Assembly: GCA_003344405.1 (NCBI GenBank)
Contig: NOWV01000013.1
Coordinates: forward strand, 186,001 to 250,000
DNA from: Trichoplax sp. H2
Taxonomy: Eukaryota
DNA: 64,000 nucleotides
Direction: 5' to 3'
The position numbers were made by a program, and so were the translations under genes. This document shows positions 19,148 to 62,810 of the stretch, one piece after another. The first letter of the stretch is position 1. The number at the start of each line of letters is the position of its first letter. The notes under the pieces were generated by a model. That model made no database searches. It was not told the DNA's origin and saw only the letters and a program-made list of their open reading frames with translations.

Positions 19148-19502
19148 CAGGCAAATGTGCCCATCACTGTCAATATCCTAACATGAAATTACTGTACAAG
19201 TGTTCGGCTAATAAGTAATAGAGAATGATAAATGAACAAATAGTGCTCGAGTAAGCCTATTACTGTATTTTATGACATGAATTCAATCGTTGCTACTGGA
19301 CTTATTCAGCTCTTAATGTTCATCCAACAGGCTAATGTACCCATCGTTATCAATATCCTAACACCAAATTACTGTACAAGTCTTCGGCTAATAAGTCATA
19401 GAGAATAATAAATGGACAAATGATACTCGAGTAAGCCTATTACTGTATTTTATGGCATGGATTCAATCGCTACTACTGGACGTATTCAGCTCATAATGTT
19501 CA
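19148..19502. repeat. Direct tandem duplication, 180-bp unit x2
   Basis: Lines 19141-19320 and 19321-19500 align column for column (caatatcctaaca...actgtacaag...ctcgagtaagcctattactgtatttt). Confidence 0.9.
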
Positions 19503-29155: not shown

Positions 29156-29677
29156 TTTGATTGCAATTTGAAAATGAATTAGTCTAGGAAATGGATAAGT
29201 CGTCTACCAACCAAGGTTAATAATTCTACAATCTTTTTCTCGCCAATTTGGTCCAAAATAATGTAACACACAGGCGAACTAAACTATTTTCTACTTGCTG
29301 TAAGGTGACCAGGGTAAGAGTGACACTAGGAGTGAGCAGTTAGCCAAGGGAGCAAACAATTTTCAGTTCCAACCGTCGCGATCAGCCACCACCAGTATGG
29401 ATACTAGCCCATACACAGCAGTCAGAAGATTGTGTAGCTAAGGTCTTGTTCAATGGATTGCGTCAGCAAAATGACAGGCACAGCACGACCTGTCTTCGCT
29501 TCAGCTGCCGTCTGTAGTGTGTGTCTAAACGTTGATGTACTTCAGTCTGATCTATACAAAAAGAATACCTGGTCAGGTCATCCTCCATACGGTAGTGTGA
29601 CAGTCCAGCAAGGGGCGTGTGACTCTATTTACGTACGGTACAGTCAACCAACCGCGTGAACTGTGACGAGTGAAATT

Positions 29678-29729
29678 TTCAAATTATGGCGCTATTTTTT
29701 CATTGGCTAAGAGTAATTCATCAACCAAT
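29678..29729 (-). promoter_or_regulatory. CDE/E2F-CHR element with two CCAAT boxes upstream of CKS1
   Basis: Minus strand reads TAGCGCC-ATAA-TTTGAA (29694-29678); CCAAT boxes at 29702-29706 (-) and 29725-29729 (+). Confidence 0.65.
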
Positions 29730-31108
29730 GAAACATCATCTTGATCATGCGCATGTTTCCTCTCCATTCATCAACCAACAGGGGAAAGGAAATGTTACAA
29801 ATGTGAACTGTGATGGTCAAATGGATCACCCCAACTGGACAAGGGCCAAAATACACAATATTCCAATCATACAAACTCATTTCCTTTTATTTTATTGATT
29901 TATTCCATACAGTGAAAATGTATTAATCGCATCGTATCTGACAGCAAGTATTGAGCCAACAAGATTTTTTCTGTATGGAACGATGATCGATATTATTCAT
30001 GGGTTATTATGTCTAAAAATCTCAATTTTAATAATACACAAATTGTACGTAGGCGAAAGCTACGTCAATAGGATGATCGAAACAAGAATCATACTGTCGT
30101 ACGATTGAAATAGTCGAGGTTTATCCATAACTTATAAAAGGTATACGCTCACCGAGTATACAGCTTTTAGACTGTAAAAAATAAACGATACCGACATCAT
30201 CCAGTCATAAGTTTCACAATTTTGTACATGCTACGAGCTTTTATTTATTGCAGTATCATATAGCGTAATTGACGCATGATTATGGAATACAAGTACGATT
30301 CTGTTAATGTTTGGCGACTAAAAAAGGACCAAACCTGATCTTTACACCTACGCCATACATACATAATTATCAGAATAAATGTTTGTTGTGTACTGTACAC
30401 TTCACTGAAACTGTTCTACTGGTGCATTATGCCCTTGTGAACATGTCTAGTAAGAAAAAAAATATGCAAACACGACGATTTTAGTAAAACACTTTCAGAG
30501 AAGTATCCAAAAAACATTCATTCAGATGGTTGCATCTGTAAATAAACAATTACTGTCTCCATTCCACAGTAGTACAGTAGAGACCCTCTAGAAACAACCT
30601 CATTTCTAGTAGACACAGTACTAGTTACAGGCATCGGCAACGCTTTGCAATGTCTTTAAAATACCATAATAATAATTTCCTTCCACCTCAGGCTTACTGA
30701 CTAATCCTAGCCGAGGTCATGCAACGCCATCATGTCTGTACGCCTGTACGTCTGTGACAGGCGAATTCAAGTGCCTACGCAGCCGTGTTTTGCAGCTGTG
30801 TTTACCATATCGCTGTGGCAACAACTTTCACTCGTTTGTATCCAGGTGCTCTCACACGCCGTTCAGTACAGTACTTAGACTCATCACAATCGCTTCGCAG
30901 TAAACTCGCCTAACAAGTCCAATGGAGCCAAAGTACAGTACTGGTACCGATACTTTTGATGACGACGATTTGCTGATGGAAATCGGTCATTCATATTGAT
31001 TCCAGCGCTAGATTAAACAGCAATTATTAGCCAAGGACTTTTTGACTCCATTTTAATAGACAGCATTAGACTGCATCGTTTTAGCTGTAACCTTCTTAAC
31101 CGGTAATC

Positions 31109-32852
31109 ATGGCTACCAAACGAATTACACAAGAAACTTTTGACGCCGTAGTCAAGGAAAATATAGATGATTTCGAGATGGATGCGGAAGAGGCTGTAGA
31201 GGATGCTATTAAACAGTTTGAATCTCAAGGAGTCAATTTAAGTAATATTATTAAACAAGCAGCAACAGCATCCGATGATCAACAATCTGGATCTGAAGCT
31301 CGTCATCCTATTTTAACTGCACTACAACGTATACAAGATAGCTTAAATAATCAATTGCAAGAAAAGAATGATGAAAAATTGCAAGATGCTTGCAAATTAT
31401 TTCAAGAGCAATCATGCCAAGGGGCTGCTTATCGAAATGTTGCCGCAGCTAACGGCGCTTATTCGATCATGTATAAACTTTGCCAAAGTGTAATCAACAA
31501 TCCTTCCAGCCTTTCGATAGCCTTGCGTACCATGGCTTCACTTATCGATGGCCAACCAGATTTAATGGATAATGTTGGCATTCAATTAATTATGGAAATT
31601 TTAAAGATGCACTTCAATGATTCGTTAATACAGCAAACCGGAATCAACGTTGTTCGCCTTGCGTGTATTATGCATGAAAGCAATCGTCAAAAATTTGTTA
31701 GCTGTGACTTAATTGAACACTTAATTTCGGTTTTACGTCATTTTACGGCTCAAATTGCTGTCATTAAAGAAGCATGTTCAACACTCCGTACGTTAACTTT
31801 AGATGACGATATAAGAGTGCCCTTTGGCAAGGCTCACGAACATGCTAAAATGATAGCTAGTGAATGTAATGGTCTTGAACTCTTAATCGAAGTCATTAAG
31901 TTACATTACCAAGATACAACCATCTATTGTGAAATTTGCTCTACAATTGCTAAATTAGCGGTTAGGAATGAATATTGCCAACAAGTTGTTGATTTAGGCG
32001 GATTAAAATTGGTAACACAAGCCCTAGCAGAAAGAATGGATGAATCGGTAGGTGCTAACTAATCGATAGCTTACTCGTATTAGTCCGGAGTTGGCTGTGA
32101 TGTGCAGTACGGTAACACTAGTAGCAAGGAATTCCGATGGAATAAAGTAATCGTTCTATGATGATAATACTGTAGAATTTTTATATCGTCTACAGTATAT
32201 ACTGTATGAAGTATCTCGCAGTATTGTATATAGACTCTATTATGTTACTCTGATAAATTGATTATTGAACTAAATACTGTAGATGATTGCCGCAAGATCA
32301 TGTTTTCTACTTCGTGCAATCTCTGGCAATGACGATGTCAAGATCGCAATAGTAAATTCTAGCTGCGTATCGTTAATAATAGCCGCTATGGATAGGCATC
32401 CTAAACATATGCATATTGCAGAGCAAGCCTGTGCAGTTTTCGCATCACTTGCATTGAGACATCCGCAACACTGTGCAGAGATTATATCATGTGGTGGTGC
32501 TGATTTCATTTTAAAAGCTATGAAAATTCATGAAGATGTAGAAAGCGTACAGGTTAATATAAATAAAAAATTCTTCTCTTGTCGCATATGTCCTATTGCT
32601 ATTTGAAAAAAATAAGCTTCATGTGCTCTTAATTTCACACGATAGAAACAAGGATGCTTAGCTATTCGTAACATAGTGGCAAGATCTAGGGAATATTGCA
32701 ATACTTTTCTAGAAGCTGGAGCTGAAGCCATTATCCGACAAGCCAGACGAAAGCATAAAAGTTGTGACGATGAGGCGAAAGCGGCATTGCGAGATTTAGA
32801 ATGTGCGGTACAATTAAAGGAATTATGGACTGGATTGCCAACTAATGGATAA
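31109..32852 (+). CDS. ARMC6: Armadillo repeat-containing protein 6, 3 exons
   Basis: KRITQETFDAVVKENIDDFEM...EAVEDAIKQFESQGVNLSNI, LTLDDDIRVPFGKAHEHAK, LAVRNEYCQ, AKAALRDL...LKELWTG. Exons 31109-32047, 32283-32552, 32646-32852. Confidence 0.95.
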
Positions 32853-38001: not shown

Positions 38002-39745
38002 TAGCAATGATTTCAGTAGATGAGATGCGGTTAACAAATGTTAAGGATATTATTGCTTTTAAATGCTTATTGATTGAGCACATAACGCAAATATTGTACA
38101 GCCGGCTGCATGGAAAAGAAGAAACTAACAAAGTAGATTATGGTGTGCTTCTGCCTTCCACTGTGCAAAATTGTACGGATCTTTAAGTAATGGTCAATAC
38201 ATACCTAGCATGATGTGTGCTTAACCAGCTAATGGCAACTGACATTTTAATCCAGACAAGGAAGAAATTAAGATTTTAAAGATTATAGAATATTATAGTG
38301 TAATATACGAGTCTAAATATCTGCAGCAAAAACAAACGTGCGTGCAGCATAAAACACTGGTGTGCAGTCGAGATTGCATCAAGACCAAAGCTTGATTAAT
38401 CATCTATTTGCAAGTACAGTATGGGGCTATACGGAGCACTTGTAATAACAGACTAATTTTAAGTATTTTACCTTACGTAATATACAGTATATCTTCAACT
38501 TTTCATGCTAGTGGTTAGCGATTCCATTCCTACTTATTTAACTAGTCTTTGTCATTGCATAATCATAATAACTGCCTACTCAATGCCATGAACTTCTAGA
38601 TCTCTAAGTCCATGTCAATGAATAGTAATGCGTAGTGCCGTAATTTTATATTCCGTGTCAATAGAAGATTTTAAATTGGAGCTAAAGCAATTTTGGAAAT
38701 TATGACATCTCAGTTTAGAAAATCAAGCTTGACCTTAATATGTGTCTCTGATGGATCGTGATTACGATCTCGCTTGTCTTGGCATTCGATATTCATAGTT
38801 TTACTAGTTTTGGCAATCTTGTTATCAATGTTATTTTATTCAGATCTCACTTTACTTCAATATACATTTCGTTATTTATTATGGGATGCAAAAGGTCTAA
38901 TTATTCTCTTGCAGTGTCAACCTGCTCGAAATTGTCCTACCGTACGAGCATATTGTATGTTGCAGTGTGAAATGCAGTCATATGCATTAGATGGTATGTT
39001 ATCATAGCCATTGCATAAAGCATAGTGTCGAATAGATGATAGAACTATACTTACTATCAGCGTTGTTCACAATTAAATGTTTAATGTTATGCTAAAATGG
39101 CCTAATCATAACATAATGTTATAAAATCTTATATATAGTGTACAAACATGAACTACTAGATGCTAGTCCACGGTACAAGTCAGTACATTGTAGGCCATAA
39201 CAAACGCCATATAGCTACAGGACGCAGGCAGAAGGATATAAGAATGAATTATGGATAATAATGATGTGCTGGTATTGGAAAGCAAATAAAATTTGATGAT
39301 AAAAGATTTTATTAATTATACACCATGATATAATAAATGAATAAAAACGTGTATTATCATGCAATCTTGACATTTGCTTACAACAAATTGTGCTGGAGAT
39401 TGCAAATTATGGTTATTATACAGTCATTTTGAAGATGTTGGGCTTAAAATGCAAGTGCAAGTAAGGTATCCTGGATGAGATACAAGATATTCTTACCTGA
39501 ACCTTATCACCTAAACTTTTTAAAATTATAAAATGATCAAAGCCCGTATTTCAATTACAGTTAACCTTATACGGAAGACAAAGAGCCATAGTTTCATAGT
39601 GATGTACCAAGACAAAGTAAATCATGACCTAAACCTTACATATATTTAAGACATTACAGTGCTATCAAGAGTTAAGGGAATACTTTAATATTATCGAAGA
39701 TATAATAAGCAAATCCTTCAAAGTAAAACAATTGCAAGCTATCTC

Positions 39746-40632
39746 TCAGCCAATTAATAGTAGAATATGATTTCTTCGTTTGTCGATCAGAATACAGTAT
39801 ATTCTCATGCTTGTTAACCACAGCGAATTCATTCGAAACCAATAATTGGATAACTTAGAGCTCTTTTGAACCGCATCATTCTTATTTATCTTTTCATCTA
39901 CTACCTGCTTCTTTTCATACATCCGAGCTAACCGAGCGTTATCAGTATGTCTATTGGCAGAAATAAAGTTGTAGATGGTTCTGGTTGAATATTGTTTTTT
40001 TATTTTTCTTTTCATCTGTTAACACATTTGTAGTATTTTTACTCTTTCCCATTAGCCTACCCAACCTAAATGTATCCTCATACCCATTCCTTTTTCAGGA
40101 AATGGATTCTCTATTCCTTTTGAATCTACTTGCGTCTCATCTCCTTTCTTTCTACCCACTACTCAACTCGCCGTTTTCTTGCTCTTTTCGGATATCCATA
40201 CCAATCAAGATTGATCGGTATGTTTCTTTTCAGTTAAAAAATCCCTAGATAATGCGTCTTTCTTGTGGATCTTATCTAGATCGATCTTCTTTCACTTTTA
40301 CCAGTATGTCTATTTTCAGAGGTTGAATGCTTCAATAATTGGATATCCTTTTGGATCGCCTCTATCGCTTGTCCTTCCATTTATTTATTACTCAGCTCCA
40401 TGGACTACTAGATGCACCTAGTAGTCCATGCCAGTTTATTATATTCTTACTCTTTCCAGACATCCATGTTAACAAGGTCTTTGCAGCGTATCCAGTTGTC
40501 CGAAATCCGCTATTAGAACATTCGGAGTTATTTTTGGTTCCTTTTTTGTTGTTTTCCTTTCTGCCTGTTACCTAATTCATAAAATTCTTGCTTGTTCCAG
40601 TTATCTACTCTAGCCAAGACTTATTAACACAT
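39746..40632 (-). pseudogene. Decayed 3' half of copy A
   Basis: Homologous to ~44190-45095 but with TGG->TAG stops at 40605-40607 and 40572-40574 plus further disruptions. Confidence 0.85.
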
Positions 40633-40825
40633 CTACGGATTGCAGTAAAATGAATCGACATTCTACTGTATTATATCAATGTAGCCATACGTATAAAATT
40701 ATACATTATAATATAGATGTAATAACAGATGCATTTATTCTGTTCCGTCAGACAGTAGCATCCTCTTCTATATCTCTGTAGCCTTCTACCTGTATACTGT
40801 GTTCTCATTTTCAGATAGACCTGCT

Positions 40826-42909
40826 TCATATTCTCCTATCACCCTTGTCATTTGTCGTTGCCGTTTGTTTCTTAAAAAGTTTCTTACACAGATTACGCTG
40901 TATACTATGTACAGAACCTTCAACTTTAGCCTGAATAAGTAGTTTACTTACCTCTTCAGTTAGCTTAGATAATTCATTGTTCATGAATTCAACCCACTGT
41001 TGAGTGGCAAGGTCGTATTTAGTCTTATTGTAATAAGTTGTGTCTGTAAATCCTTGCAAAAGTGCGCTGCACTTGTTTAATGGGTCATGGCTAACTTCAT
41101 GTCTTAGACATTCCAAGTATTTTTTTGTATTAGAAATTAACTCAGATAAATGTTTCTGTAAAAGTAACTTACTAGCAACACCATTATCACTCGGTTTGTC
41201 CATGTTATGGGTGTCGTTTTCGCATTTTAATGACGTCTTATTAGCAACAATATGCTTAGAAGATCCTTGAAGCATAGGAAATACAATCATGATATATATA
41301 CCAAATAAGCAGACAATCACAGCTACAATAATGTAGCTTGAAGGTGCTAGTAACATTTTCTTGTGCTCAGCGGTAACGACTTTTTTATTTTGATTGATTG
41401 ATTCAGTTAGAGCAGACTTGCTAGAAACAATACCACTCGATTCCGTTATTTCGCTATCATACAAAAAATCAGAACCTGCCTCCTTCACATCCGGTACGAT
41501 CTGGTTACTTAATGTTATATCATTATCGGTAGTTAATTCTACAGCCTCGTCTGGTTGAACGATAATCGTAGACCCATTCTCGGATTTATTATTAGAAATT
41601 GCAAAAGCTTCGATTTGACGGCATTGCATATCTTGGTCTACGTCGGCGAGGGTACCGCTATCCACTAAGCAATAACTACCTGCATCACTGATTATAGCGT
41701 TAGCTTTATTATCAGCGTCGAGTATAGTATTCATGATATCGCTGTTGAAAATATTGCGCCCATCTAAACTACTATGACTTTTCAAGATAATATAGTCACT
41801 TGTATCTAATGATGTATCCACGTCCGAATCAACTTGGCCCTAATAAAAATTAAAATTAGAATACTTAGCGTCATTATCGTTTAGTAATTTACACTATGTT
41901 TACACGTCAAAATCTAAAGTACAGTACATATACGCGTGTAGTTTAACACATAATCCGCAAAGTAACGGAGAAATGATCAGAGGGTTTTAAAATAAAACAG
42001 ACAAGCAATCATAACCACTGAAATTAGGAACGTGGCAAGCTCTTGTCAGCCAAAACTGAAGTAAAATTGATATCAAGATCAAAGTAATAATTAATTATTA
42101 TTGGAGATGATGATCAATCGCTGAATTTATTTGTAAGGCAATTTTAACTATCAATCGGATGAGAGAGATATCGCTATCCATGATAATAATGTACTGTACA
42201 ATGTACGCGTCCTTTTTAACTGATCATAATCATCAATAAGTTTTAACATATAAAATGACTAGCTAGAAAGAGAAGCAATTTGATTTCTCCAAGTCATTGC
42301 TACTGTTTACTGACAAGCGGATCAGACGGTAATATCATCCACGATATACATACAGTAGGTCATTTTCTGGCATTGAGATTTTCCCTTGACTAATATCATT
42401 ACATTTAGCCAGAGGAGGATCTCACCATTGCAATACCAAACATGTCCTTGTTACAGATCATGAACGTGCTATGGTACAAAATAATTCAGCTAGAAAGGAG
42501 AAGTGATTTGATCTTTTCATTCCTGACAAACAGATCGCATTATTATGACTGTGGTCACTGTGATGACTGTAAATAACATTTCTACTATACTTAAGAAGGA
42601 AAACTTAACGACTGATTCCTAATAACCTGACAATGAAACTACGTACCGTCATAATTATTAATATACTAATAGAACCCACGCTCGTTATACTTCGAGTATT
42701 GCATTATATCCGCTGTCATGAAAACTAATTTGATCTCGCCGCGCGCCATGGCTGACAAACAGAGTACATACCATAAAATTGTATCAATTCTTATTAATTA
42801 CAATCGGTAAAAAGTAAAGGTTTAAAGCAGTTAATCTCGATAATAGGACAATAAACTACATAAAGTAGATCTTTACGGAATCATTTCGATCTCCAGTTCT
42901 ATCCTTCAT
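40826..42909 (-). CDS. Single-pass membrane protein, truncated copy A (~348 aa); CCPG1/PBXIP1-like candidate
   Basis: Exon 42909-42877 (MKDRTGDRNDS|gtaaag) plus exon 41839-40826. Acidic N-terminus with DTSDYIIL, TM YIIVAVIVCLFGIYIMIVFPML, helical luminal part. The last ~30 aa come from sequence absent in copy B. Confidence 0.6.
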
Positions 42910-44179
42910 TATGCCTAGGTAATCGACTACCACCCGCATGGTTAATTCAAAAAGTATATAATCATTATTCAACTATACTGGATTGGAAACTGGACGTTAG
43001 GCGTGAAATTAGGTTTTACGCTTCTTTACAACATCAATAAACCCTAGCAAAACCTACAAAATTGTTGCCGTCTTCCTTTAGGATCCTCAGATCGGAGGTA
43101 GCATTCATGATCGATAATTCACAACACACGCCGTTTTAAAATTGATAGCAAATTTTCCTACAATCAAGTCCTGCACGAAATAATAGATGATGATGTGTGT
43201 GTAGAGTGTAAAAACGGATGCAAACACTTACCAGATATGCGCATATTGCCAATATAAATAAAAGCCGTAATTAATATTAATTACCATAACATATATAGTT
43301 AACAATAGCTGCACGGCGTTACTAGTGCGAAAAATAAATACATAATTAAAAGTACTATACTATGGAATAACTTTTTAAATATCGAGGCTTTGGCCATTCT
43401 AAAGTCGACGATGACCTTCCACATTGGCAGTTTCACACATTAAAGTAATTTTTTAATTGTTAATTTCTATCTGCTTCGATTTTATAGCCCTCTTATACGA
43501 AACCTTCTTTTCTTTTATAATAATATAAAAAATAAAGAATTAATTAAAAAGCCCAACCGGTACTGGTACTTTACTTTGATTCTATAGCTGTCACATACAG
43601 GTTAATTTTTCGTCACTAATAGAAGATAAATAAATGATGGTCCAAACTTGATCTTTAAGCTGAATACTAAACTAAAAACTTATAAGCAAATAAAATTTGA
43701 TAATAAAAGATTTTATTATACATCACGATGTAATAAGTCAATGAAAATATAAAATGTATATTATCATGCAATCTTGACATTTATTTATAACAAATCGTGC
43801 TAGAGATTGCAAATTATGGTTACTATACAGTCATTTTGAAGATGTTAGGCTGAAAATATAAGTGCAAATATCAGGTATCCCCGATGCGATACAGGATACT
43901 ATTACCTAAACCTTATCACCTTAATATTTTAAATTTATAAAATGATCAAAATATCAATCGCTGCAGCCCGCTGTATTTCAATTACAGTTAACCTTTATAC
44001 GGAAGATAAAGAGCCATACGATTCGCAAAAATGTACCATAACAAAGTAAATCATTACCTAAACCTTACATATACAGTATTGAAGACATTGCAATGCTAAC
44101 AAGACTTAAGGGAATACTTTAATATTATTGGAGGTGTAATAAACAAATCCTTCAAAGTAAAACTATTGCAAGCTATTTG

Positions 44180-47171
44180 TCAGCCGCGTCGAAATATTTT
44201 TTTGCTGCCTTCTTTGGCCTTATTGAAGATCCGATTAATAGAAGAATATGCTTTCTTCATTTGTCGATTATAATATATTCCCATGTTTCTTAACCACAGT
44301 GAATTCCTGGGAAACCAATGGTTGGATAACGTTGAGCTCTTTTGAGCCGCACCATTCTTGTCCGTCTTTTCATCTACTACCCACTTCTTCTCAAGTATCT
44401 GTGCTAGCCGAGCTTCGTCAGTATGTCCATTTGTAGGAAATGAAGTTTTAGGCGATTTTGGCTCTGATTTCTCTTGAATATTGTTTTTATTAGTTTTCTT
44501 TTCATCTGTTAATTTAGTTTTCTTTTCATCTGTTAATTCAGTTTTCTTTTCATCTGTTAATATATTTGTAGTATCTTTACTCTTTCCCATTAGCCAACTC
44601 AACCTAAACTTATCGGCATACCCCATTCCCTTCTTTCTACCCATTACCCAGCTTGTCGCTTTCTTGCTTTTTTTGGATATCCATGTCAACCAGGATTGAG
44701 AAGTGTGTTTATTTTCAGCTAAAAAATCCCTAGATGATTCGTCCTTCTTATGTATCTTATCTGCATCGATCTTCCTTTCACTTTTATCAGCAGGTCTATT
44801 TTCAGGGGTGGAATGCTTCGATAATTGGCTATCTTTTTGAATTGTCTCTTTATAGCTAGATGGACTACTAGATGCACCTAGTGGTCCACGCCAGTTTATA
44901 ATATTCTTACTCTTTTCAGATATCCATGTTAACCAGGTCTTTGTAGCGGATCCAGTTCTCCGCAACCAGCTGTTGTTATTAGGTTCTGTGTTATTTTTGA
45001 TTCCATTTTTGTTGTTTTCCTTTGTACCTGTTACCCAACTCATAAAATTCTTGCTTGTTCCAGTTATCCATTCTAGCCAAGTCTTATCAGCACATTTTCT
45101 TTCAACTTTAGCCTGAATAAGTAGTTTGTTTACTCCTTTAGTTAGTTTAGATAATTCATTCTCTATGGAATCAATCCACTTTTGAGTGGCAAGGTTGTAT
45201 TTAGTCTTATTGTAATAATTTGTGTCTGCAAATTTTTGCAATAGTGCGTTGCACTTGTTTAATGGGTCATTGCCAACTTCATGCCTTAGACATTCCACGT
45301 ATTCATTTATATTATAGATTAACACAGAAAAATGTTTCTGTAAGAATACCTCATTAGTAACACAAATATCGCTCGGTTTTTCCACGTTGTGGGTGTCGTT
45401 TTCGCATTTTAATGACATCTCATTGGCAATAATATGCTTAGAAGATCCTTGAAACATAGGAAACATAATCATCATGCTAATCAAGCAGACAATCACAGCA
45501 ATAATGGTGTAGCTTGAAGGTGCTAGTAACTCTTTCTTGCACCCAATAGTAACGACTTTTTTATTTTGATTGATTGATTCAATTAGGGCAGACTTGTTAG
45601 GAATAATGCCACTCGGTTCCGTCATTTCGCTTTCAGACAAAAAGTTAGAATCTGCCTCCATCACATCCGGTACAATCTGGTTAACTGATGTTGTATCATT
45701 ATCGGTAGTTAATTCTACAGCCTCGTCTGCCTGAGCAATAATCGTAGACTCATTTTTCTCAGATTTATTATCAGAATTTGAGGAAGCTTCGATTTGACTG
45801 CATTGCGTATCTTGGTCTACATCGGTGAGGGTGCTGTCATCCACTAAGCAATAACTATCTGCATCACTGATTATAGCTTTATCGTCAGTATTGAGTAAAA
45901 AATGAGTGATGTCGCTACTGGAAATGTTAGGGCTATCTAAGCTACTTTGCGTGTTTAAAACAAAATAGCCACTTATATCTGATGATGAGTCCACGTCCGA
46001 ATCAATTGGATCCTAATAAGATCAAAATTTAAAAAAGAGAACTTAGCGTCATTATCGATTAGTAATTTACGCTACGTTTACATATAGAAATCTAAAAGTG
46101 CAACACGTATACGCGCATAGTTGAACACCGAAGGACAAACAACATCGATAACGCTGAGCAAAATACCGATAATCCCCAAACGAACAGGGAAATGATCAGA
46201 GGATTTTTAAAATAAAGCAGACAAACAATCATAACCACTGAAACTAGAAACATGGCAAGCTCTTGTCAGCCGAAACTGAAGTAAAATTGATATCCTGATC
46301 AAAATAATAATTAATTGTTACAGGAGATGATGATCAATTGCTGATCTTATTCGTAGGGTAATTTTAACTATCAATCAGATAAGAGGGGTATCATTATCCA
46401 TTGCAATAGTTAAAATATAATATACTGTACAATGTGCATGTCCTTTTTAACTGATCATCAATAAGTTTAAGTTTTAATCTACAAAATGACTAGTTAAAAA
46501 GAGAACTAATTTGATTCCTTGATATCATTGGTGCTGTCTGCTGACAAGCGGATCAGACGGTAGCATCATCTACAATATAATGTACATTTATTATACGTAT
46601 AGTAGGCATTTCCTGGAATTGAGATTTTCCCTCGACTATATAATTATAATTAACCTAAGAAGAAGGATCCCACCATCCATTGCAACGTCATACGAGTCCA
46701 TGTCCTTCTTGCAGATCATGAACATGCTATCGTATAAAATGAGTCTGCTAGAAAGGAGAAGTGATTCGATCTTTCTATTCCTGACAAGCGAAGTGCATTA
46801 CTACTACTGTAGTCACTGTGATGGCTGTCGAAAGTATTTCTACAATACGTAGAAAGGAAAGACTTAACGATGGATTCGCAATAATCTGATAGTAAATTAC
46901 GTACCGTAAATTATAATATACTAGTAGAACCAATGCTCGTTATACTTTGCGTACTGCATTATATCTGCTTGTGACAAAAATTAATTTAATCTCTTCGCGC
47001 CAGGACTAACAAGGAGAGTTGCATACAAATATATTAATTCTTAATTGCTAGTTACTGTAGTTACAATCGGTAAAAATCAAAGATTTAAACAGTTAATTTC
47101 AATAATATGACAATAAACTATATAACGTAGATCTTTATGGAATCATTTCGATCTCTAGTTCTATTCTTCAT
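44180..47171 (-). CDS. Single-pass membrane protein, full-length copy B (~620 aa); CCPG1/PBXIP1-like candidate
   Basis: Large open exon 46012-44180 behind a ttattag acceptor; likely first exon from ATG 47171. DSSSDISGYFVL LIR-like motif, one TM, Trp-rich amphipathic repeats, three 24-nt repeats (LTDEKKT) at ~44490-44565. Confidence 0.7.
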
Positions 47172-47712
47172 TTTGCCTACGCAATCGACTACCATCAGCA
47201 AGGTTAATCCCAAATGTATGCAATCATTTTTCAACTGTACCGCATTTGGAATTGAATATTAGGTGTTAAACTAGTTTTTTGACTTCTTTACAACATCAAT
47301 CAATCCTAATAAAACTTACAAAATTGTTGTCATCTTCCTTTAGCCCCTTCACATCGTGAGTAACACTCATGATGGATAATTTACAACATCAATCGCTTTA
47401 AAATTGGTAGCAAAAATTTCAACAATCAAGTTTTGTACGAAACAAAATAATAGATGATGACTGTCTACTAGGTGAAAAAATGATGCAATGTAAATAAATA
47501 CCGCAATTAATAATAAACGAGTATATAATTAATTAACTGAAGAGACCAACCGGTAGTTTACTTCCTGTACAGTCTACTACTGTGGATCATAAAACACTCG
47601 ACTTTTCAGTGCATACTATATACTGTATGTGGACTTTGCAGGCATAGTTGTACAATGCACTGCACATTTACATATGGGGCAGAACGATGACGTATCTATA
47701 GTAGTTTGGGGA

Positions 47713-47903
47713 AAGCTTCCGACTTTTCTTTCAGGACCTTCTTTAACCCCTAGTGCTGCTGTTAGCGGGGGGTTACGAGGGAAGGCTCTGATCTAGTATT
47801 TTGGACCTTCCCTTCGCATGAACGGTCAGCACTGGGGTAGCTTAATTTTTGACTGTGAACGGCACCCGATATGGGAAACTCTAGTAGGAGTGCTGTAGCA
47901 GTC
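47713..47903 (+). ncRNA. Candidate structured RNA with Sm-type site, family unassigned
   Basis: GC-rich island with nested stems containing G-U pairs on the + strand; AATTTTTG (47844-47851) lies between two folded domains. Confidence 0.5.
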
Positions 47904-49006
47904 CTCAGTGTTCTACAGTATTGGCCCATGGACTACTAAAAAAGGAAATGGTCTCCATGATTAGACTTTTTAATTCATTTTTTTGAATCCATCGAGAGAA
48001 ATATTTTGAACAATTAGAGACTTGGCTAATACAAAGTAAACTCATTTTCACTAATAATAATAATTATAATTCGTATAGATATACAGTATCTCGTATATGC
48101 AGTACTAGCTGAGATACCCATTCGAAATGAACTTCGAAAAGCATTACAGACTTTACTAACATATGATAAATAAGGAACGTATAGGAGTAAATGTGATACA
48201 CAGTATAGTAGTTCGTCCATATTAGTAAGCGGTGGACAATTAAATTGTACAGTAAAAGTATGGACCACTAGAAAAAACAGTAGTGGTCCATGATTAAAGG
48301 TAAAAGTATAAGTACGCAAAGTGTAGCGAGCGAGAGATCGACTAGTAAGAATCATTTACTGAAAATTGTACATTCTACTATTCAATTTGATATAACAGCG
48401 AATAAAATGGAGACCTATGCTAAGCAATTATCAAAAATTATTTATTTCATATGATAGGAAAACAATTCGACACGCATACGTGTATAAAGACTACAACTCG
48501 TGTCAATATGTCAGCATATTGCAATTGTAATATCAAATACTTCACAATTCATAACATAAAAACGCAGTATCTTAAAAGTAAGAACCAAAACGGGCTAAAA
48601 TTAAATGTATAACCGATAGATTTAAAAAAATGGATATAACATCCAATCAGAACAGTAATTCAAACTCTAAAAAGTCTAATACAGCCGTTATCAGTCAATG
48701 TTGCGCTTCATAAGAGTGCGCCAAATGAAATTTTTACATTTTATTAACTTTAGATTTGTTCAAAATGACTAATTATTATATCAACTTTCTGCAAGATTAT
48801 AATCCAGCTATAAAAAAATCATTCCATTATGCAAAAACTGTCCAGATATACAGTACGTATATCACCTTTTGGATAAATTATCAATCTGTACAAAAACTAC
48901 ATCTAAATTTATCCGAAATTGTACATGTGGTCATGTACTGAATTAAAACCATGTTATCAGTATACGAGTATTACATATGATAATTATACAAGTAAAAATA
49001 ACAATA

Positions 49007-52000
49007 TTAAGAATCACCGGCATTATCACCTAACTCTTGCGTGGTATCACCGGCATTATCTTTTAACTCTTGCGTAGTACCACTGGCATTATCCTTTAAC
49101 TCTTGTGTGGTATCTCTGATATTATTATTATCTAATTCTTGCGTAATATCACCCGTCACTTTCATTTCACTTTTTAGAGCATCTTTCACGAACGGTTCAA
49201 GTCGTTCTTCTAAACTATGGCCCATCAAATCTTTTCTGGTAATGATACCAGAAATCCTAGAACAATAAGCTTAGAGTTATCATCAAACTTTAACAGCTAC
49301 CGTATACGTATCGACTTGTATAAATTAACGGAATGATCATACCTGTTACTAGTGTCGGTAACAATTAAGTGTCTGGAAAGCAATAGAGATCGAATTAGGT
49401 ACAATTTAAAAGAAGACAAATTTTATACCAACCATAAAATTGTCAAAAAATATACCTTAAGCCAAGAGTTCGAAAGAGAGCGTAAACTCTATACAAGGAA
49501 TATGACTCTGGTACACAGATCGGCGATTGTCCATAATAATGTGCCTAACAAATATTATCGAGCTCTTAACTTATTTGTATAGTAATTACAGTTTAGCAGA
49601 ATCAGTATTTATAGCCCATAGCAGCATAACTTGTTACTTACCAAATCTATGTAAAGGTCATTATATTTTTCATCATGACAGTACTTTTCAAGAGCTTCTT
49701 TAACTGGGCCTTCATTCGGCTTTTCAAGATGTTTAGGTGCTTCGATAAACTATAAAAGGACTCATGAAAATCAATAAAGACAAGCTCCAAGAAGCAAACA
49801 AATTCATTTTCAAACGTTTTACCTGCTGATAATCTAGCACGGGAACATCAACAGGACTTGCTTCATTAGATTCGAATAAATCTTCTTGTAACATTATCAA
49901 ATTCAACTCTGGCCTAAAATAGCAATATCTCTTTACACATCTTACACATTCTGTAATATCGTAATATTTAGGTGAATTTCAGAATCTGAACATTGATCTC
50001 ACTTAAAACTTAAACATTTATAGACATTTACCTTTTGATAATTCCGCAAACTATCTCGGTACCTTCAACTTCTTTAACAATAGGAAAGCCACAATGTTGG
50101 CAATTCAATAGCAACTTGGCGATGTCTGCAACGCGTTCTCGCGATCGCAGAATCTAGTCAATAGAACAATGTTAATTCTCTACGATAATAAATTTTACAC
50201 TAAAACATTGTTACCAGAGGATTTTTCGCCATAATTTGTCCAGCCGTAAAAAGTTCTATGCTAACGCTAAACAAGCAAACAGTATAGTAAATTAACATCT
50301 CATTCATTCTTTAAAATGCAGTAAGTAAAGTCTTTACTTGTCTTTCTTGTTATGTAATATAACCGGTTCCCAGTTTAAAAATGGGATGCACTTCATTTCC
50401 ATTAATGCATGATACAGCGAATGTGTAATGGTATCACCGACCCACTTTGCAATTATGACGGCAGTCATTATACATAATAAGAACTGCACGTCATTGGTAA
50501 TTTCCATCTTTATGTCCGAAAGTTATATCAAAGTATTAGTTCTATTATTATTAGTAAAAAAATAAAATAAACCAGACTCTTTTACATACCATAATTACTG
50601 TCAATGACATTGTTAAGCGTGAGACACCAGCAAAGAATGATGCAGAGCCAATTAAAGCAAATGCTCCTGGATCTATCCATGTCCAGTATCCTATCATTGC
50701 GTTGAGAGAATATTGAAAAATTTTAAATATAGGTGCATGTTGCATTTCTATTAATACTTATTTTATGCATCTCATTTTTGTTCTTCTACGCGTACCTGCA
50801 CGATGTATGCCAAACATATGTACCATGATACGTCCAACAATGCGGCCGTATAATGAACCTATTAAGCTATACCAATTTATAGAGATTGCCGTAAAATTTA
50901 GCCACCCTATCAATTTTATTAAATCTTATTTTCTTTAAACTTACAGCATCGGTACAACAAGACCACTAGCGACTGACGTCCCAGAGGACCAGCAGGATAA
51001 AAGGAAATAAATAACTAGAATTGCTATTAAAGGCCTACAATTTTTTAAAGAATTATAAATTTACTAGCATGTGTACAAATGACATTTATTGATGTGAAAA
51101 TTTTCATTATCATAGAAGATAAAGTCAAGTCGCTCCTAACATACCCAAAATCGAATTCTAAATGGGTATTGCGTGACAAAAGATGTTTTATAGCTTCTTC
51201 ACCAGTCACAAACATTAACGTTGCAACTAATATTATGCCAAAAGCAAGAAAGATTACATTAATTTGCATTGGCAATCTTTAATCAAATAAATGTGTTGAC
51301 AACTACTGTACTAGTATTAGTACCATTTCTACAGTATTTATGATATGTTTACTATACTGGTATACAAATGTACATCAAATAACAATCGAACCTACCTTGA
51401 CTATAAGATCTATTGTAGAACACAGTGGTATCATTATAGTTAATGTTAACACCAGCTTCACAAGTATATAGTTGTACATTCGGTTCAAGATGCAATGGGT
51501 GTCTACGATCTGTTAAACACTGAGGGCTAAAGATAAAATTGGAAACGGTCAATTTTTAACGATAAACAGATTCGTTGTTGTACGATCGTTTAACATGGAT
51601 AACCAATCAGATCTTACCTGGATGTATCTGTATCCAGTCGACATCGGAAAGGAGTACAAGGGAATGCTGCAGGTAGGAAAACTGAAATAGTAGCCATAAT
51701 TGCCTAAAAGTATAGATATTCAAAATTTTATAATTAACAACGTACTCGCAGTGTTTTGTAGTTAAAAATTGAGAATTTCATTTTTAGATCCCAAAACAAA
51801 TCGATTCGAATCCTTTACCATTATAAGAACTGGTTCAGCGATTTTACATGCTGTCTTCCATCGTTTATTTTTTATACGTTTCATTACTGACGAACGGTAT
51901 CTTCGAATCTTGATACCAATAAAAAAAATTTAATATTAGTCAGTAATTACGGCGAATATCTGCTTAAGGTAAGATATTATCTTTAGAATTACCCAAATTC

Positions 52001-55000
52001 TTCTAATTATAAATATTGTTAATAAAAAATGTGAAAGAATGAGAAGGAAATATCTGAAATTTCTTACTTTAACATTTAAAAAAGTGAAGAAAGCACCCAG
52101 TATTCCTCCGATAATACCAAGTATAATGGATGGAATAAAAGCTACAAGGTTTACAGATATACCACGTTTCACCTGAAAATACAGCAGAAAGGTATTTACA
52201 TGTAAGCATTTAATGATGTACTACGGTAACATTACTATAGTGGATGAAAAGAAGCTAAAATTTACCTGGAAAATAATATATTTGTCTTCTTTAAAGGCAC
52301 CAAATTCACCAGCATACTTAAACCCATCAAAAGCCGAATTGAAGAGATCCTAAGTAATCAATCATAACGATTGATGATAAATACACTTTTATTCAGTTGC
52401 ATTAACCGTATTTAGAATTGCAGAATTACTTACGGTAGTGGCAGTTGATACCATACAGCAAAAGAACGTCATCCAACTTTGCTTTATGCTCCAAAATGAA
52501 GCAACTTCTTCCATAGCAAAGAGTAGCCCACCTACAGGAGACCCAAATGCAGCAGAAACACCGGCTCCAACTCCAGCATTTATAAAATCACGTCTAATTA
52601 TAACATAATATAGAGGATATTACATGGCATTATCCGATCTCACATACTACGTTCACTTTTACGGGATAGATGCGAAGTTCGGTGGATTCATAAAAACCCA
52701 ATATTTGTTATTTTATTACCTGTCTTTCGGATTTCGAAATTTTTCAAGAATAGGTAATTTGATTTTAAACGTATCTGACTTCAACTGGCTCAGTCCAGCT
52801 CCCACAAGACCTCTGTGTAATGAAAATCAACAAGAAATTACTTTGACTTTAGTTATCAATCAATCAACTATCGATTGGTTACAATGTATTGATAGGTTCA
52901 TGTCAAGTTATGGTTAAAAGGTTTTAACATACTTTATCAAAAATTCATGACTATTGCAAAGCTCATTAACTACCAAAAAAACTGTTAATTTTTTTCGTAG
53001 TCCATGCATTACTGAAGTAAATAGTAAAGGATGAGAATTTCTAATGAAAATACATGCGATCCTTCTATTACTAAACATGTATTGTAGTATCTTTGACAGC
53101 AATCATTACTGGTATTGCATATAATCACTATGAGTATAATAATTCATGGCAGTAAGTTTTCTATAACGCTGATCTAGAAAGCATACATCCTAGGTAGCAC
53201 AATTTAAAATAAAAGTGTTTACACACTTAGTACTTACTAACCCTAAATGAATCATTGGCCCTTCTGGGCCGATCGGTAAGCCGGAACCCACTGCACAAAC
53301 GCAAGACAAAAACTTTATTATCATAGTCTTGAAACTGAATACTTTTCGAATACGGCTTCCATTCAAGAAGCCAATAAGTTCCGGCATACCCGAGCCACCA
53401 GCCGATGGCCTAAAGAACTGCAACATTTGGAGAGTAATAATTAATCAACTCTTAATTAGAGCTGATGTAGATTACAAAATATGTAGCTCGAAACAATGCA
53501 AGGACGTTATTTACAGACAAGGAATAAAAGGAAACATTCTGACTGTATACAGAGTAAAAATAATATTGAGAATGGATAATTGATAGCAAACTTTGATTAG
53601 CAGCAAATAGGCATTTATTTCTTGCTATCGTATATGCTAAACATATTGCCACGGCTAGTATAGCATTCTAACAAGTACTAACCACTACTAGTGAGGCGGA
53701 TACTAGAACAAATAGCATGCTATAACCGATAGTGAAGATCCAGGCAACACCAAAATTTCCTTCCTAAGAATTATAATAGAACACAATATTGAAATAAGTA
53801 TAAATTTCCTTAATCCAACCAAGGAGTAAATTTAAGAATGTGCAGTATACAGTAATTGTATCGACTTATGTAATGAAATAGATAATTTACATAACTCGAT
53901 GATACTCATATGTAAAGATTGCACATCAAAATATTGATAGCCTAGAAATCTCGGTATAATTATTTTAGATCGCTAGAATAAAAACCGACATACCACGATC
54001 ATTCTTCCAGCAACCGAGAACTTTGTTCTATTTAGTGGTACAAAGAAAGAAAAATTTAACACCCGCTTATCATATTATCAGGTCGTTCTATATTATATAG
54101 AAGCATTATTTGTAATGTTGTAGTACAGCATTTAATAAAATTAAAATTAGATTAAAAGTACTGTAACCGTAGTTTCCTCTGATCATAGCCCCACTAAGTG
54201 ATTATTTATTTCTGAATATCCAGTAAACTACTATACGACAGACTGTCAGTAAATTGTTTTGGACTAGTGTCTTACTCCGATATTAGAAAATTAGATTAAA
54301 AACATTGTAACCGTAGTTTCCTCTGATTCTAGCCCCACTAAGTAATTATTTATTTCTGAATATCTAGTAAAACACGATACGGCAGACTGTCAATAAATTG
54401 TTTTTGGACTAGTTACTCTGATATTAGATCGATAAATTGATGTACAAATACTATACCGTAGACTATCGATAAATTGTTTATTATGTTAGTGGCTTACTCT
54501 GATATTAAATCGATAAATTGATGTAATAACCATCCAACAACACCAACGGCAAATCCAATCAGACCCATCATAAGCCATCGATCCCATTCTACCTGGACGG
54601 AAGCAGTTCGTAACCAATCCTGTATAGCATCATTATAACTGGTGACACTTTGCAATCTCATTATTGCTAGAAAATTTCACTTTTTCATTTTACACGTCTC
54701 TAAAATCTATGATCAATCTATACTAATTGAACATGATACTGTAGGGCGTGATGTCTATCGTACGATAACGGTCTATAATGCAGTGTTGAAAATCAACATT
54801 GAACTCCTGATAGACGAATAAATTAAACTATGCAGCATGTTATCGAGCTGTTTCAGCGGTTTGAAAAGCTAAAAAAGTGGTACTAATTATACATCGTAGA
54901 TGTAGCAGCACCATTGCTAGGTAAGAATATTGGCTAAAAAGAAGCTGGATGAAAGTTAATTTGTGCGAGCGTCGGTAACCCACTCTATGCGCATATACTT

Positions 55001-58310: not shown

Positions 58311-59354
58311 TTACCCTTCATTATCAGGTATGGGTGTATTACAATTTCCATGGTAAACATTAATTTTACCATCGCATTTGAAATAAAGATCGAAAACATC
58401 TTTATAGCCATGATCACGCCAGTACGTACATAACTGACGATTCCATGTACAAGGAAGAACGTAAAACATATCATTGTATTCCATATGAAGTAAGGTATAT
58501 AAATCTTGATCACCAAGATGGCCACGAAAATGGTATTTCTTAGCTAAATTTTCCGGTAAATTTTCATCAAGAACTTGACCAAATAATTTGGATTTTCTCA
58601 TACGTTCTAAATCTAACAATAAAACACCGCTATTAAAACCAGTTAATCCATGTGGAGGTGGATCTCCTACTCTAGTCTTGGGATTTTCATGCCTATACTG
58701 CCAAAAGACATGGCGGTAGACCGGTTGACTTTCACGACCAATCCCAATAATATTGTTCGGTTGAAATTCATGAAATAAGTTGAATAAATTTCGAATATCA
58801 GTCGTAAATTTTAAGTCAGAATCCATCATAACAACACGTTTAAATTGTGCTGGTAGAAATTTATGCATAGCAACCGATAGAAAGAAGATGGCATCATTAT
58901 AATAACTTCCTTTGCTACTAAACATTGGCTGAAATTTCTCTACATAAGAATAGATCTTCTTCAACACGTCTTCCACAAAATGGGTTGTACTCTTGACGAC
59001 ACAAGATGGCCAATTCTTTTTAGCATTGTTAACTGCTTGATGTAATACCGATCGAGTGTCCTTATCCGTTACAAATAAGAAATGTAGTCTAGAAGTGGTG
59101 TGCTTAAAAACAGAATTGATTGTTTCCTCAAAGCGTACTGCTAAACGGCTACCAGGCGTAGCCCGAGTGAGAATCATCACGATATGTAGTTCTTCCTCCT
59201 GCTTGCAATTATTCCCCTCTGCACAGTATCCATTATTCGTGGTAGGTTTACTGACAAGATTTCTTCTTTCATCATCGCTTGCAATTCCATTGAATGTAAA
59301 GAGGAATAACACTATTAAAAGACGCCAAGACTGGGTGATAAAGATGTGATTCAT
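58311..59354 (-). CDS. XXYLT1: Xyloside xylosyltransferase 1 (GT8), single coding exon
   Basis: 347-aa ORF with YYNDAIFFLS, DSDLKF (DxD), IGRESQPVYRHVFWQYR, GFNSGVLLLDL, HFRGHLGDQDLYT, LPCTWNRQLC, YHGNCNTPIP. Confidence 0.96.
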   Translation of the reverse strand: MNHIFITQSWRLLIVLFLFTFNGIASDDERRNLVSKPTTNNGYCAEGNNCKQEEELHIVMILTRATPGSRLAVRFEETINSVFKHTTSRLHFLFVTDKDTRSVLHQAVNNAKKNWPSCVVKSTTHFVEDVLKKIYSYVEKFQPMFSSKGSYYNDAIFFLSVAMHKFLPAQFKRVVMMDSDLKFTTDIRNLFNLFHEFQPNNIIGIGRESQPVYRHVFWQYRHENPKTRVGDPPPHGLTGFNSGVLLLDLERMRKSKLFGQVLDENLPENLAKKYHFRGHLGDQDLYTLLHMEYNDMFYVLPCTWNRQLCTYWRDHGYKDVFDLYFKCDGKINVYHGNCNTPIPDNEG

Positions 59355-59564: not shown

Positions 59565-60252
59565 ATGGACTATCTCAAAATGATACTGTCGTACTCGCCT
59601 AAGCGATGGCGGATTTCGAGCTTCTGCAGACATGCCAAATTGCCTATGCATCATTAATTCATTAATTAATTAATGCACACTGGCAAGGACTTGATACATG
59701 GAGTAGTTAATAGCCTAGTGCTTGCTAGTTTTCCATACAGAACTAACTCTAAGCCCGATTCTACCTGCACGAACAGCAGGCCTAAATTCATTATGGACTG
59801 TCAAAATGATACTGTCGTACTCGCCTAAACGATGGCGGATTTCGAGCTTCTGCAGACATGCCAAATTGCCTATGCATCATTAATTCATTCATTAATTAAT
59901 GCACACTGGCAAGGACTTGATACATGGAGTAGTTAATAGCCTAGTGCTTGCTAGTTTTTCATACAGAACTAACTCTAAGCCCGATTCTACCTGCACGAAC
60001 GGCAGGCCTAAATTCATAATGGACTATCTCAAAATGATACTGTCGTACTCGCCTAAGCGATGGCAGATATCGAGCTTCTGCAGACATGCCAAATTGCTAA
60101 TGCATCATTAATTCATTAATTAATTAATGCACACTGGCAAGGACTTGATACATTGAGTAGTCAATAACCTAGTGCTTGCTAGTTTTCCATACAGAACTAA
60201 CTCTAAGCCCGATTCTACCTGCACGAACGGCAGGCCTAAATTCATTCTGGAC
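59565..60252. repeat. Near-identical tandem array, 226-228 bp x3
   Basis: Units start atggac at 59565, 59793 and 60019 and end at ~60252; few substitutions between units. Confidence 0.95.
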
Positions 60253-62521: not shown

Positions 62522-62587
62522 ATTTTGGCTCATAATTTAATCAATTGTTACCACAATATCAATATGGATAAAATAAAACTTTATAGA

Positions 62588-62810
62588 GCTGGGAATAAGA
62601 TCAACACTGCACTAACTATTCAGACAGTTGGTAGATAATAACAATCAGCAGGAACGCCATTCGGTTAAAGTCCTAAGAAAATTGCTCATAATTATCCTTA
62701 GCTGGGAATAAAATCAACACTGCACTAACTATTCAGACACTTGACAGATAATAACAAGCAGCAAGAACACTATTAGGTTAAAACGCTGAGAAAATTGCTC
62801 ATAATTATCC
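62588..62810. repeat. 113-bp direct tandem repeat x2
   Basis: gctgggaataa.atcaacactgcactaactattcagaca...aaaattgctcataattatcc at 62588 and 62701. Confidence 0.9.

Follow-up and report, generated by a model that had tools for sequence, protein, structure and literature searches.

The spacer between a CLC-channel gene and the gene TrispH2_002128 in Trichoplax sp. H2 raises the question of whether a short, strongly folding and GC-rich stretch of DNA encodes a small structured RNA of the Sm class. The locus was studied within a 64-kb stretch of the genome (hereafter the window), and the candidate element was taken as positions 47713-47903 of the + strand, for which a first-pass annotation had proposed either a divergent minor-spliceosome snRNA or a new Sm-class RNA. 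The reading preferred here, which is offered tentatively and at well short of even confidence, is that the element is a gene, single-copy and restricted to placozoans, whose product would be a small structured RNA of ~180-190 nt, read from the + strand and Sm-class in its build. If this is true, one of the earliest-branching animal phyla would gain a new family of Sm-class RNAs, in a small-RNA repertoire that is seemingly minimal (no microRNAs, and ncRNA genes that are mostly single-copy); the finding would also mean that extra snRNPs arose outside Bilateria, and would provide a tractable single-copy locus. If the gene is not real, the locus would illustrate how a GC-rich patch and an Sm-like U-run in a 33%-GC genome can imitate an snRNA by fold statistics alone.

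The predicted fold of the element is considerably more stable than that of comparable random sequence. The + strand reaches a minimum free energy (MFE) of -72.7 kcal/mol, compared with -57.6 +/- 4.0 kcal/mol in 200 dinucleotide shuffles (z -3.75), none of which was equally stable, such that the shuffling check proposed in the first-pass annotation came out in favor of a genuine fold; additionally, the centroid structure is nearly identical to the MFE structure. The MFE structure pairs 66% of the bases in 63 pairs, comprised of 55 Watson-Crick and 8 G-U pairs. The minus strand of the same interval folds less well, at -56.0 kcal/mol (z -2.50, with 3 of the 200 shuffles equally stable). Each of the three parts also stands out when folded alone, with a z-score of -3.3 for the 5' domain, -3.9 for the 3' domain and -5.4 for the inner hairpin at 47746-47838, and for none of these was any of 200 mononucleotide shuffles as good. 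The features of the locus are collected in Table 1.

Table 1. Positions of the candidate element, its parts, its immediate surroundings and the substitutions seen in a divergent haplotype (coordinates of the 64-kb window)
Feature	Position	Strand	Basis or description
5' domain, three-way junction	47713..47843	+	MFE and centroid agreement
Closing helix, 5 bp, AAGCU/AGCUU	47713-47717 with 47839-47843	+	MFE
Weak hairpin of the 5' domain	47718-47736	+	MFE
Unpaired pyrimidine-rich CCUUCUUUA, nine bases	47737-47745	+	MFE
Long irregular inner hairpin	47746-47838	+	5+7+5 bp, internal loop, 10+5 bp, 9-nt loop
Sm-type motif AAUUUUUGA (RAU3-6GR)	47844..47852	+	Sequence and MFE
3' domain, 53 nt	47851..47903	+	Outer helix GACUGU/GCAGUC, inner helix and small apical hairpin
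TATA-like TATCTATAG	47693..47701	+	Sequence only; 12-20 nt upstream of 47713
Non-coding GC island holding the element	47541..47957		GC 0.40-0.51 vs ~0.30 in flanks
Substitution G>A	47765	+	X13 contig; breaks the G47765-C47817 pair
Substitution G>A	47820	+	X13 contig; unpaired internal-loop position
Substitution A>T	47852	+	X13 contig; last Sm-motif base, breaks the A47852-U47902 pair of the 3' outer helix

The strings on which the original proposal was built are all found in the places where it had put them: ACCCCTAGTGCTGCTGTT (47746-47763) and AACGGTCAGCACTGGGGT (47821-47838) enclose CGAGGGAAGG and CCTTCCCTTCG, AAGCTTCC occupies 47713-47720, and AATTTTTG occupies 47844-47851. The closing helix of 8 bp survived in part, with the AAGCU/AGCUU portion pairing in the MFE structure and the UCCGA portion being taken up instead by the local hairpin at 47718-47736. 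The helices proposed for the 3' domain were reproduced by the MFE structure at 47851-47903, where the inner helix is ACGGCAC(CC)/(GG)AGUGCUGU, and the apical loop reads UCUAGUAUU. Between the two helical domains, AAUUUUUGA is unpaired save for its final G in both the MFE and centroid structures, as in the layout of an Sm site; the AAUUUUU portion is single-stranded and G47851 then opens the 3' helix. With its length of ~190 nt, the element matches the order of Sm-class RNAs, namely a 5' domain, an RAU3-6GR site and a close 3' terminal hairpin. A role for the TATA-like TATCTATAG as a promoter element may be envisaged from its sequence, and the true 5' end may lie nearer 47720-47730.

For the preferred RNA gene, these features suggest a scheme in which the element would be transcribed in its own right from the spacer between the CLC-channel gene and TrispH2_002128. 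The resulting RNA would present a 5' folded domain, followed by a single-stranded AAUUUUUG site that would load the Sm ring, and a 3' terminal stem-loop, and would be assembled into an snRNP. Base pairing of the exposed pyrimidine-rich 5' segment ACUUUUCUUUCAGGACCUUCUUUA (47723-47746) and/or the apical loop with a target rich in purines would then be the predicted mode of action. The transcript, its ends, its binding of Sm proteins and any such target are inferred from sequence and predicted structure.

The stability of the element was also compared with the background of the window. Across 3192 sliding 190-nt segments on both strands of the 64 kb, the lowest raw MFE falls at the locus of the element, which places 11th of the 3192 following regression on GC (-2.89 sd). 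When the 121 sites matching [AG]AT{3,6}G[AG] in the 64 kb were folded in the same register as the element, the element ranked first in both raw and GC-corrected energies (-3.07 sd); matches to [AG]ATTTTTG[AG] number only 3 on the + strand and 6 on the minus strand. The claim that G-U pairs favor the + strand holds moderately, with 8 such pairs on the + strand vs 4 on the minus strand and a gap of 16.7 kcal/mol in favor of the + strand that is as large in 5 of 426 segments. A coding exon of the CLC gene (53201-53430, minus strand) outranks the element after GC correction, and since a coding exon can fold equally well once GC is corrected for, folding statistics alone are no proof of an RNA gene. 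A control non-coding GC island at 30640-30940 displayed no excess of folding over shuffles (z +0.62 and +0.37), which indicates that GC content alone does not explain the fold of the element. At ~121 Sm-like motifs per 64 kb, by our estimate a 100-Mb genome would hold ~10^5 such sites, and a few chance cases near z -3.7 are expected.

The GC island that holds the element reaches a maximum 200-nt GC of 0.51, compared with a mean of 0.33 for the 64 kb and a 99.9th percentile of 0.50. It is twice the length of the element, and a 421-nt stretch still folds at z -3.26; it is this longer fold that adopts the alternative pairing of TAACCCC (47744-47750) with GGGGTTA (47769-47775), which the first-pass annotation had pointed out and which is indeed present. 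The island is without appreciable coding potential, with a longest stop-to-stop ORF of 67 aa (translation table 1) or 74 aa (translation table 4), no Pfam match at E<=1 for three island ORFs, and no blastn match of the 417-nt island to plasmid and phage collections. A separate hairpin, UGCAGGCAU...AUGCACUGCA, was observed at ~47623-47680 (+) in the same island just upstream of the candidate; it is flanked by CAUAUGU-type pairing, and its sole Rfam match is a chance-level one to mir-2943 (15.2 bits, E 8.5).

The ATG of TrispH2_002128 is at 47370 (minus strand); the element, on the opposite strand, is 343-533 nt upstream of that start codon, and the island 171-587 nt upstream of it. The other neighbor, the CLC-channel gene, is likewise on the minus strand, and its last ORF stops at 49007. 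From 47371 to 48139 the minus strand carries 13 ATGs. Past the CLC stop, AATAAA signals on that strand are limited to 48740 and 48441, and the only AATAAA on the + strand between 47600 and 48600 is at 48401. Judging from the 13 upstream ATGs and the CLC poly(A) signals, the element is probably outside both neighboring mRNAs. Two more GC islands lacking long ORFs were noted at 29226-29701 and 30564-31014 (maximum 0.50-0.51), which may be 5' UTR exons or promoter islands. The latter, which includes the control region 30640-30940, sits 95-545 nt upstream of the start codon of ARMC6, the ORF of which (31109-32062) is 99% identical to a Trichoplax sp. H2 protein.

The island starts at ~47540 (judged by eye), where the homology of an upstream 4.3-kb tandem duplication stops. 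Copy 1 of the duplication carries no counterpart of the element, with only short, probably chance matches past ~47540 in the alignment. The duplication itself (~4.3 kb; 39344-43315 and 43751-47541, 73-89% identity in pieces) encodes two paralogous orphan proteins of transmembrane type and low complexity, neither of which belongs to a Pfam family. Copy 2 corresponds to TrispH2_002128 (627 aa, 100%), including a 604-aa ORF at 44180-45994 that is 100% identical to it and whose best ESM Atlas score of 0.79 is uninformative, and copy 1 matches TRIADDRAFT_54754 (389 aa, ~96-100% in pieces). The matches of TrispH2_002128 and ARMC6 mark the window as placozoan DNA.

Copy number was assessed from the window and from contigs of four sequencing runs (X1, X2, X4 and X13), which are DNA-like in behavior and have no bearing on expression. 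The element is single copy within the 64 kb, and in run X1 (contigs of at least 85% likeness) the summed depth over 47683-47955 stays at the 32.1 of one contig among the pieces listed. Contigs of X1 and X13 cross the spacer unbroken, those of X4 cover it in overlapping pieces, and no joints were seen; the very small X2 set reaches only 47293-48139, with a depth of 2.4. The single copy and flat X1 depth rule out a MITE, SINE or other dispersed repeat, and the many dispersed, decayed copies that the first-pass annotation had named as evidence against an RNA gene were thus not seen in the 64 kb or the X1 contigs. Small dispersed repeats do flank the spacer, in that several contigs with no other relation to one another converge on 46918-46956, 48134-48166 and 48312-48346 (33-39 nt) and raise the X1 depth there. 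No metagenome contig matched a 20-mer that spans the helix and the Sm site, and protein searches returned no close placozoan relative among the JGI matches listed.

Variation was assessed in one divergent haplotype, a 2018-nt contig of run X13 (organism B) with 13 differences. Three of these fall within the 191-nt element (Table 1), of which two break pairs and none is compensatory (n=3, one comparison), and the MFE of the variant is -66.1 compared with -72.7 kcal/mol. The 3 changes in 191 nt were compared with 10 in the remaining 1827 nt of the contig (Fisher 'greater' p 0.12) and with 2 in the 956 nt of adjacent intergenic spacer (Fisher 'greater' p 0.035), and neutrality makes such a substitution count 4.7 to 54 times likelier than a 2- to 5-fold constraint does. 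The substitution rate in the element is therefore no lower than in its flanks, which leans against strong constraint. The GC-rich locus is common to both organisms sampled, and the presence of a 0.51-GC patch in a 0.33-GC genome in both of them implies that it is either maintained or young.

Known RNA classes were tested with Rfam and the literature. Rfam yielded nothing at the gathering score over the whole 64 kb, such that the family match that would have removed the novelty of the locus did not appear, and no snRNA family was matched at E<=10 on 47500-48100 (601 nt) or 47690-47930 (241 nt). Across both searches, the sub-threshold matches (Afu_300, mir-728, mir-2943, SNORD29, HgcG, SCARNA13, WT1-AS_5 and HH9) were at chance level. 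In the survey by Hertel et al. (2009, PMC2655684), all nine spliceosomal snRNAs of Trichoplax are reported, including U11, U12, U4atac and U6atac; they are described as consensus-like for metazoans and as single genes save for two of U6, with a clearly recognizable PSE, and expression was verified for U4atac. The same source describes most Trichoplax ncRNAs as single copy and the screens as unable to detect placozoan-specific ncRNAs, and it lists U7, 7SK, Y and vault RNAs as still missing in 2009 (PMC2655684).

These results leave a divergent U11, U12 or U4atac snRNA as a barely credible identity for the element. The closing helix, the adjoining Sm site and the 3' stem-loop do recall U11 and U1, and the 5' end may bear a loose likeness to that of U4atac. 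Against this, no snRNA family is matched at E<=10, and all four minor snRNAs are already assigned to single, consensus-like genes (PMC2655684); the minor-spliceosome half of the original proposal was therefore rejected.

Membership of another known class (U5, U7, telomerase RNA, 7SK, vault RNA, Y RNA or a hammerhead ribozyme) is very improbable as well, with no match at E<=10 in Rfam except for the hammerhead HH9 (RF02275), and the matches for U5, U7 and the pol III RNAs were lacking at that threshold. The absence of U7, 7SK, Y and vault RNAs from the 2009 inventory (PMC2655684) would leave room for one of them. For U5, the loop UCUAGUAUU is without the U5 loop motif. The pyrimidine-rich 5' segment could in principle, judged by its bases, pair with a purine-rich histone downstream element in the manner of U7, but ~115 nt separate that segment from the Sm site. 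Runs of four T occur in the element at 47724-47727 and 47789-47792, and one of five T at 47846-47850; even an RNA terminated at the T5 run would keep the two T4 runs. These internal runs weigh against a pol III RNA running across the element and so against 7SK, Y and vault RNAs. The weak HH9 match (E 0.34-0.86) follows the shape of the ribozyme, but at 15.4 bits falls below the gathering score of 52, and CCGAUA stands in place of the core CUGAUGA. A telomerase RNA is opposed by the lack of any 9-mer complementary to TTAGGG repeats in 47541-47957, and an H/ACA-type telomerase RNA with T-PK, CR4/5 and H/ACA domains is already published for Trichoplax (PMC8480181). Elsewhere in the window, CTAACCCTAA at 53237-53246 (+) amounts to one and a half telomere-repeat complements; it lies within a CLC coding exon and splice donor (minus strand) and is coincidental, not a telomerase template.

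Comparison with named systems places the element closest to the Sm-class snRNAs in layout. In U5, U1/U11 (helix H) and U4, as in the element, a 5' domain is closed by pairing of the 5' end to the bases that directly precede the Sm site, and a canonical RAU5GR is followed immediately by a terminal hairpin, here in ~190 nt. The 3' end of U4 has AAUUUUUGA directly before its hairpin, and U1 and U11 carry helix H before the Sm site. The recognition sequences of these snRNAs are absent from the element, which has no Rfam match to them at E<=10, and the snRNAs themselves are assigned to other Trichoplax loci; single copy is a trait that the element does share with the snRNAs of Trichoplax (PMC2655684).

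Stem-loops flanking an Sm site are also shared with the nematode SmY RNAs, the spliced-leader (SL) RNAs and the Drosophila 'LU' snRNA, the last of which reportedly came from an Sm RIP-seq study. These RNAs provide a precedent that one phylum may own extra Sm-site RNAs missed by general models. SmY and SL RNAs, at ~70-110 nt, are smaller than the element and usually exist in several copies or in arrays, whereas the element has no array or splice-donor context, and trans-splicing is not known to occur in Placozoa. U7 resembles the element in that a single-stranded, pyrimidine-rich 5' segment precedes an Sm-type site and a 3' hairpin. U7 RNAs are ~60-70 nt with a special Sm site, whereas the element has a spliceosomal-type site and inserts a 93-nt hairpin within the interval between segment and Sm site. 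The nested two-helix outline of HH9 is shared by the 3' domain, and its catalytic core is unlike.

From these likenesses, a more specific and distinctly improbable form of the preferred RNA gene can be drawn, in which an extra, phylum-specific Sm-class snRNP would contain a ~190-nt RNA with a pyrimidine-rich 5' guide held beside the Sm ring by the long inserted hairpin. It would be either a long U7-like guide for histone 3'-end processing, as U7 went unfound in the 2009 survey of Trichoplax, or a guide for some other purine-rich target.

The most serious competitor, itself unlikely when taken alone, is that the locus is a structure-prone, GC-rich spacer without RNA function, in which the Sm-like motif is a chance U-run in AT-rich DNA. 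Such a spacer could be the relic of a local inverted duplication or insertion near the rearrangement-prone duplication, or a promoter-proximal island of TrispH2_002128. The divergent haplotype speaks for it, as substitutions are no rarer than in the flanks and two of three fall in pairs with none compensated, as expected with 66% of bases paired and no selection; all three changes are towards A/T, like the decay of an unselected GC patch, with the direction of change unpolarised. The position of the island fits too, as it begins at the end of the 4.3-kb tandem duplication and lies upstream of the ATG at 47370 much as a similar island lies upstream of that of ARMC6. Moreover, 55 of the 63 pairs are Watson-Crick, as in young inverted repeats. 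A functionless spacer has more difficulty with the control island upstream of ARMC6, in which excess folding is absent, such that GC or promoter position fails to account for the z of -3.75, and with the three separate parts that each beat 200 of 200 shuffles. The strand asymmetry and the surplus of G-U pairs on the + strand would be unexpected of a DNA palindrome, and a patch of 0.51 GC should decay in a genome of 0.33 GC unless young or selected, yet it is common to both organisms.

The possibility that the element forms a structured stretch within some longer pol II RNA, with an incidental Sm motif, is less probable again. That RNA might come from the TrispH2_002128 promoter region as an upstream divergent transcript, an antisense transcript or an lncRNA, or it might be the mRNA of a neighbor with an unusually long UTR. 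An island of double the length of the element, with its extra hairpin and a significant fold over 421 nt, would suit such a transcript, as would the orientation of the element, which points away from a minus-strand gene with an ATG 343 nt off in the usual geometry of a divergent promoter; the sole + strand AATAAA at 48401 could serve the same reading. It is opposed, as a 5' UTR, by the 13 minus-strand upstream ATGs and, as a continuation of the CLC gene, by poly(A) signals well before the element, and folding favors the + strand over the strand that both neighboring genes use. For the separate RNA gene that is tentatively preferred, the points counted in favor were the fold with its significant domains and ranks, the strand gap, the GC, the non-coding character, the single copy and the position outside the mRNAs. 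Also counted was the description, in PMC2655684, of Trichoplax ncRNAs as mostly single copy and of placozoan-specific ones as undetectable in the 2009 screens. Counted against it were the lack of a homologue in Rfam and by the metagenome 20-mer, the three uncompensated substitutions, the already assigned snRNA set, an exon that folds alike and the expectation of chance sites.

Several further observations were made in the window. A near-palindromic 9-mer, GTACAGTAC (<=1 mismatch), occurs 54 times in the 64 kb compared with 9.7 +/- 3.2 in shuffles (largest 21), with sites that include 22494, 27254, 27496, 30866, 30933, 41919 and 42191. The island immediately before the ARMC6 ATG holds two exact copies, and the candidate element holds none; the 9-mer may serve as a promoter motif or represent a short dispersed repeat. 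An intronless 347-aa ORF at 58311-59354 (-) is a clear xyloside xylosyltransferase 1 (XXYLT1; PDB 4wlg, E 1.6e-99), ~49% identical to mollusc and vertebrate proteins and with a best match of 79% to an ENA contig. No Trichoplax protein was among the best 120 of its 850 matches, and the gene may be absent from the published placozoan gene annotations. Short tandem arrays were found at 59565-60252, where a unit of 226-234 nt occurs three times (94-96% identity), and also at 19148-19502, 54143-54404 and 62587-62810, where the arrays have two copies of 111-180 nt at 88-90% identity.
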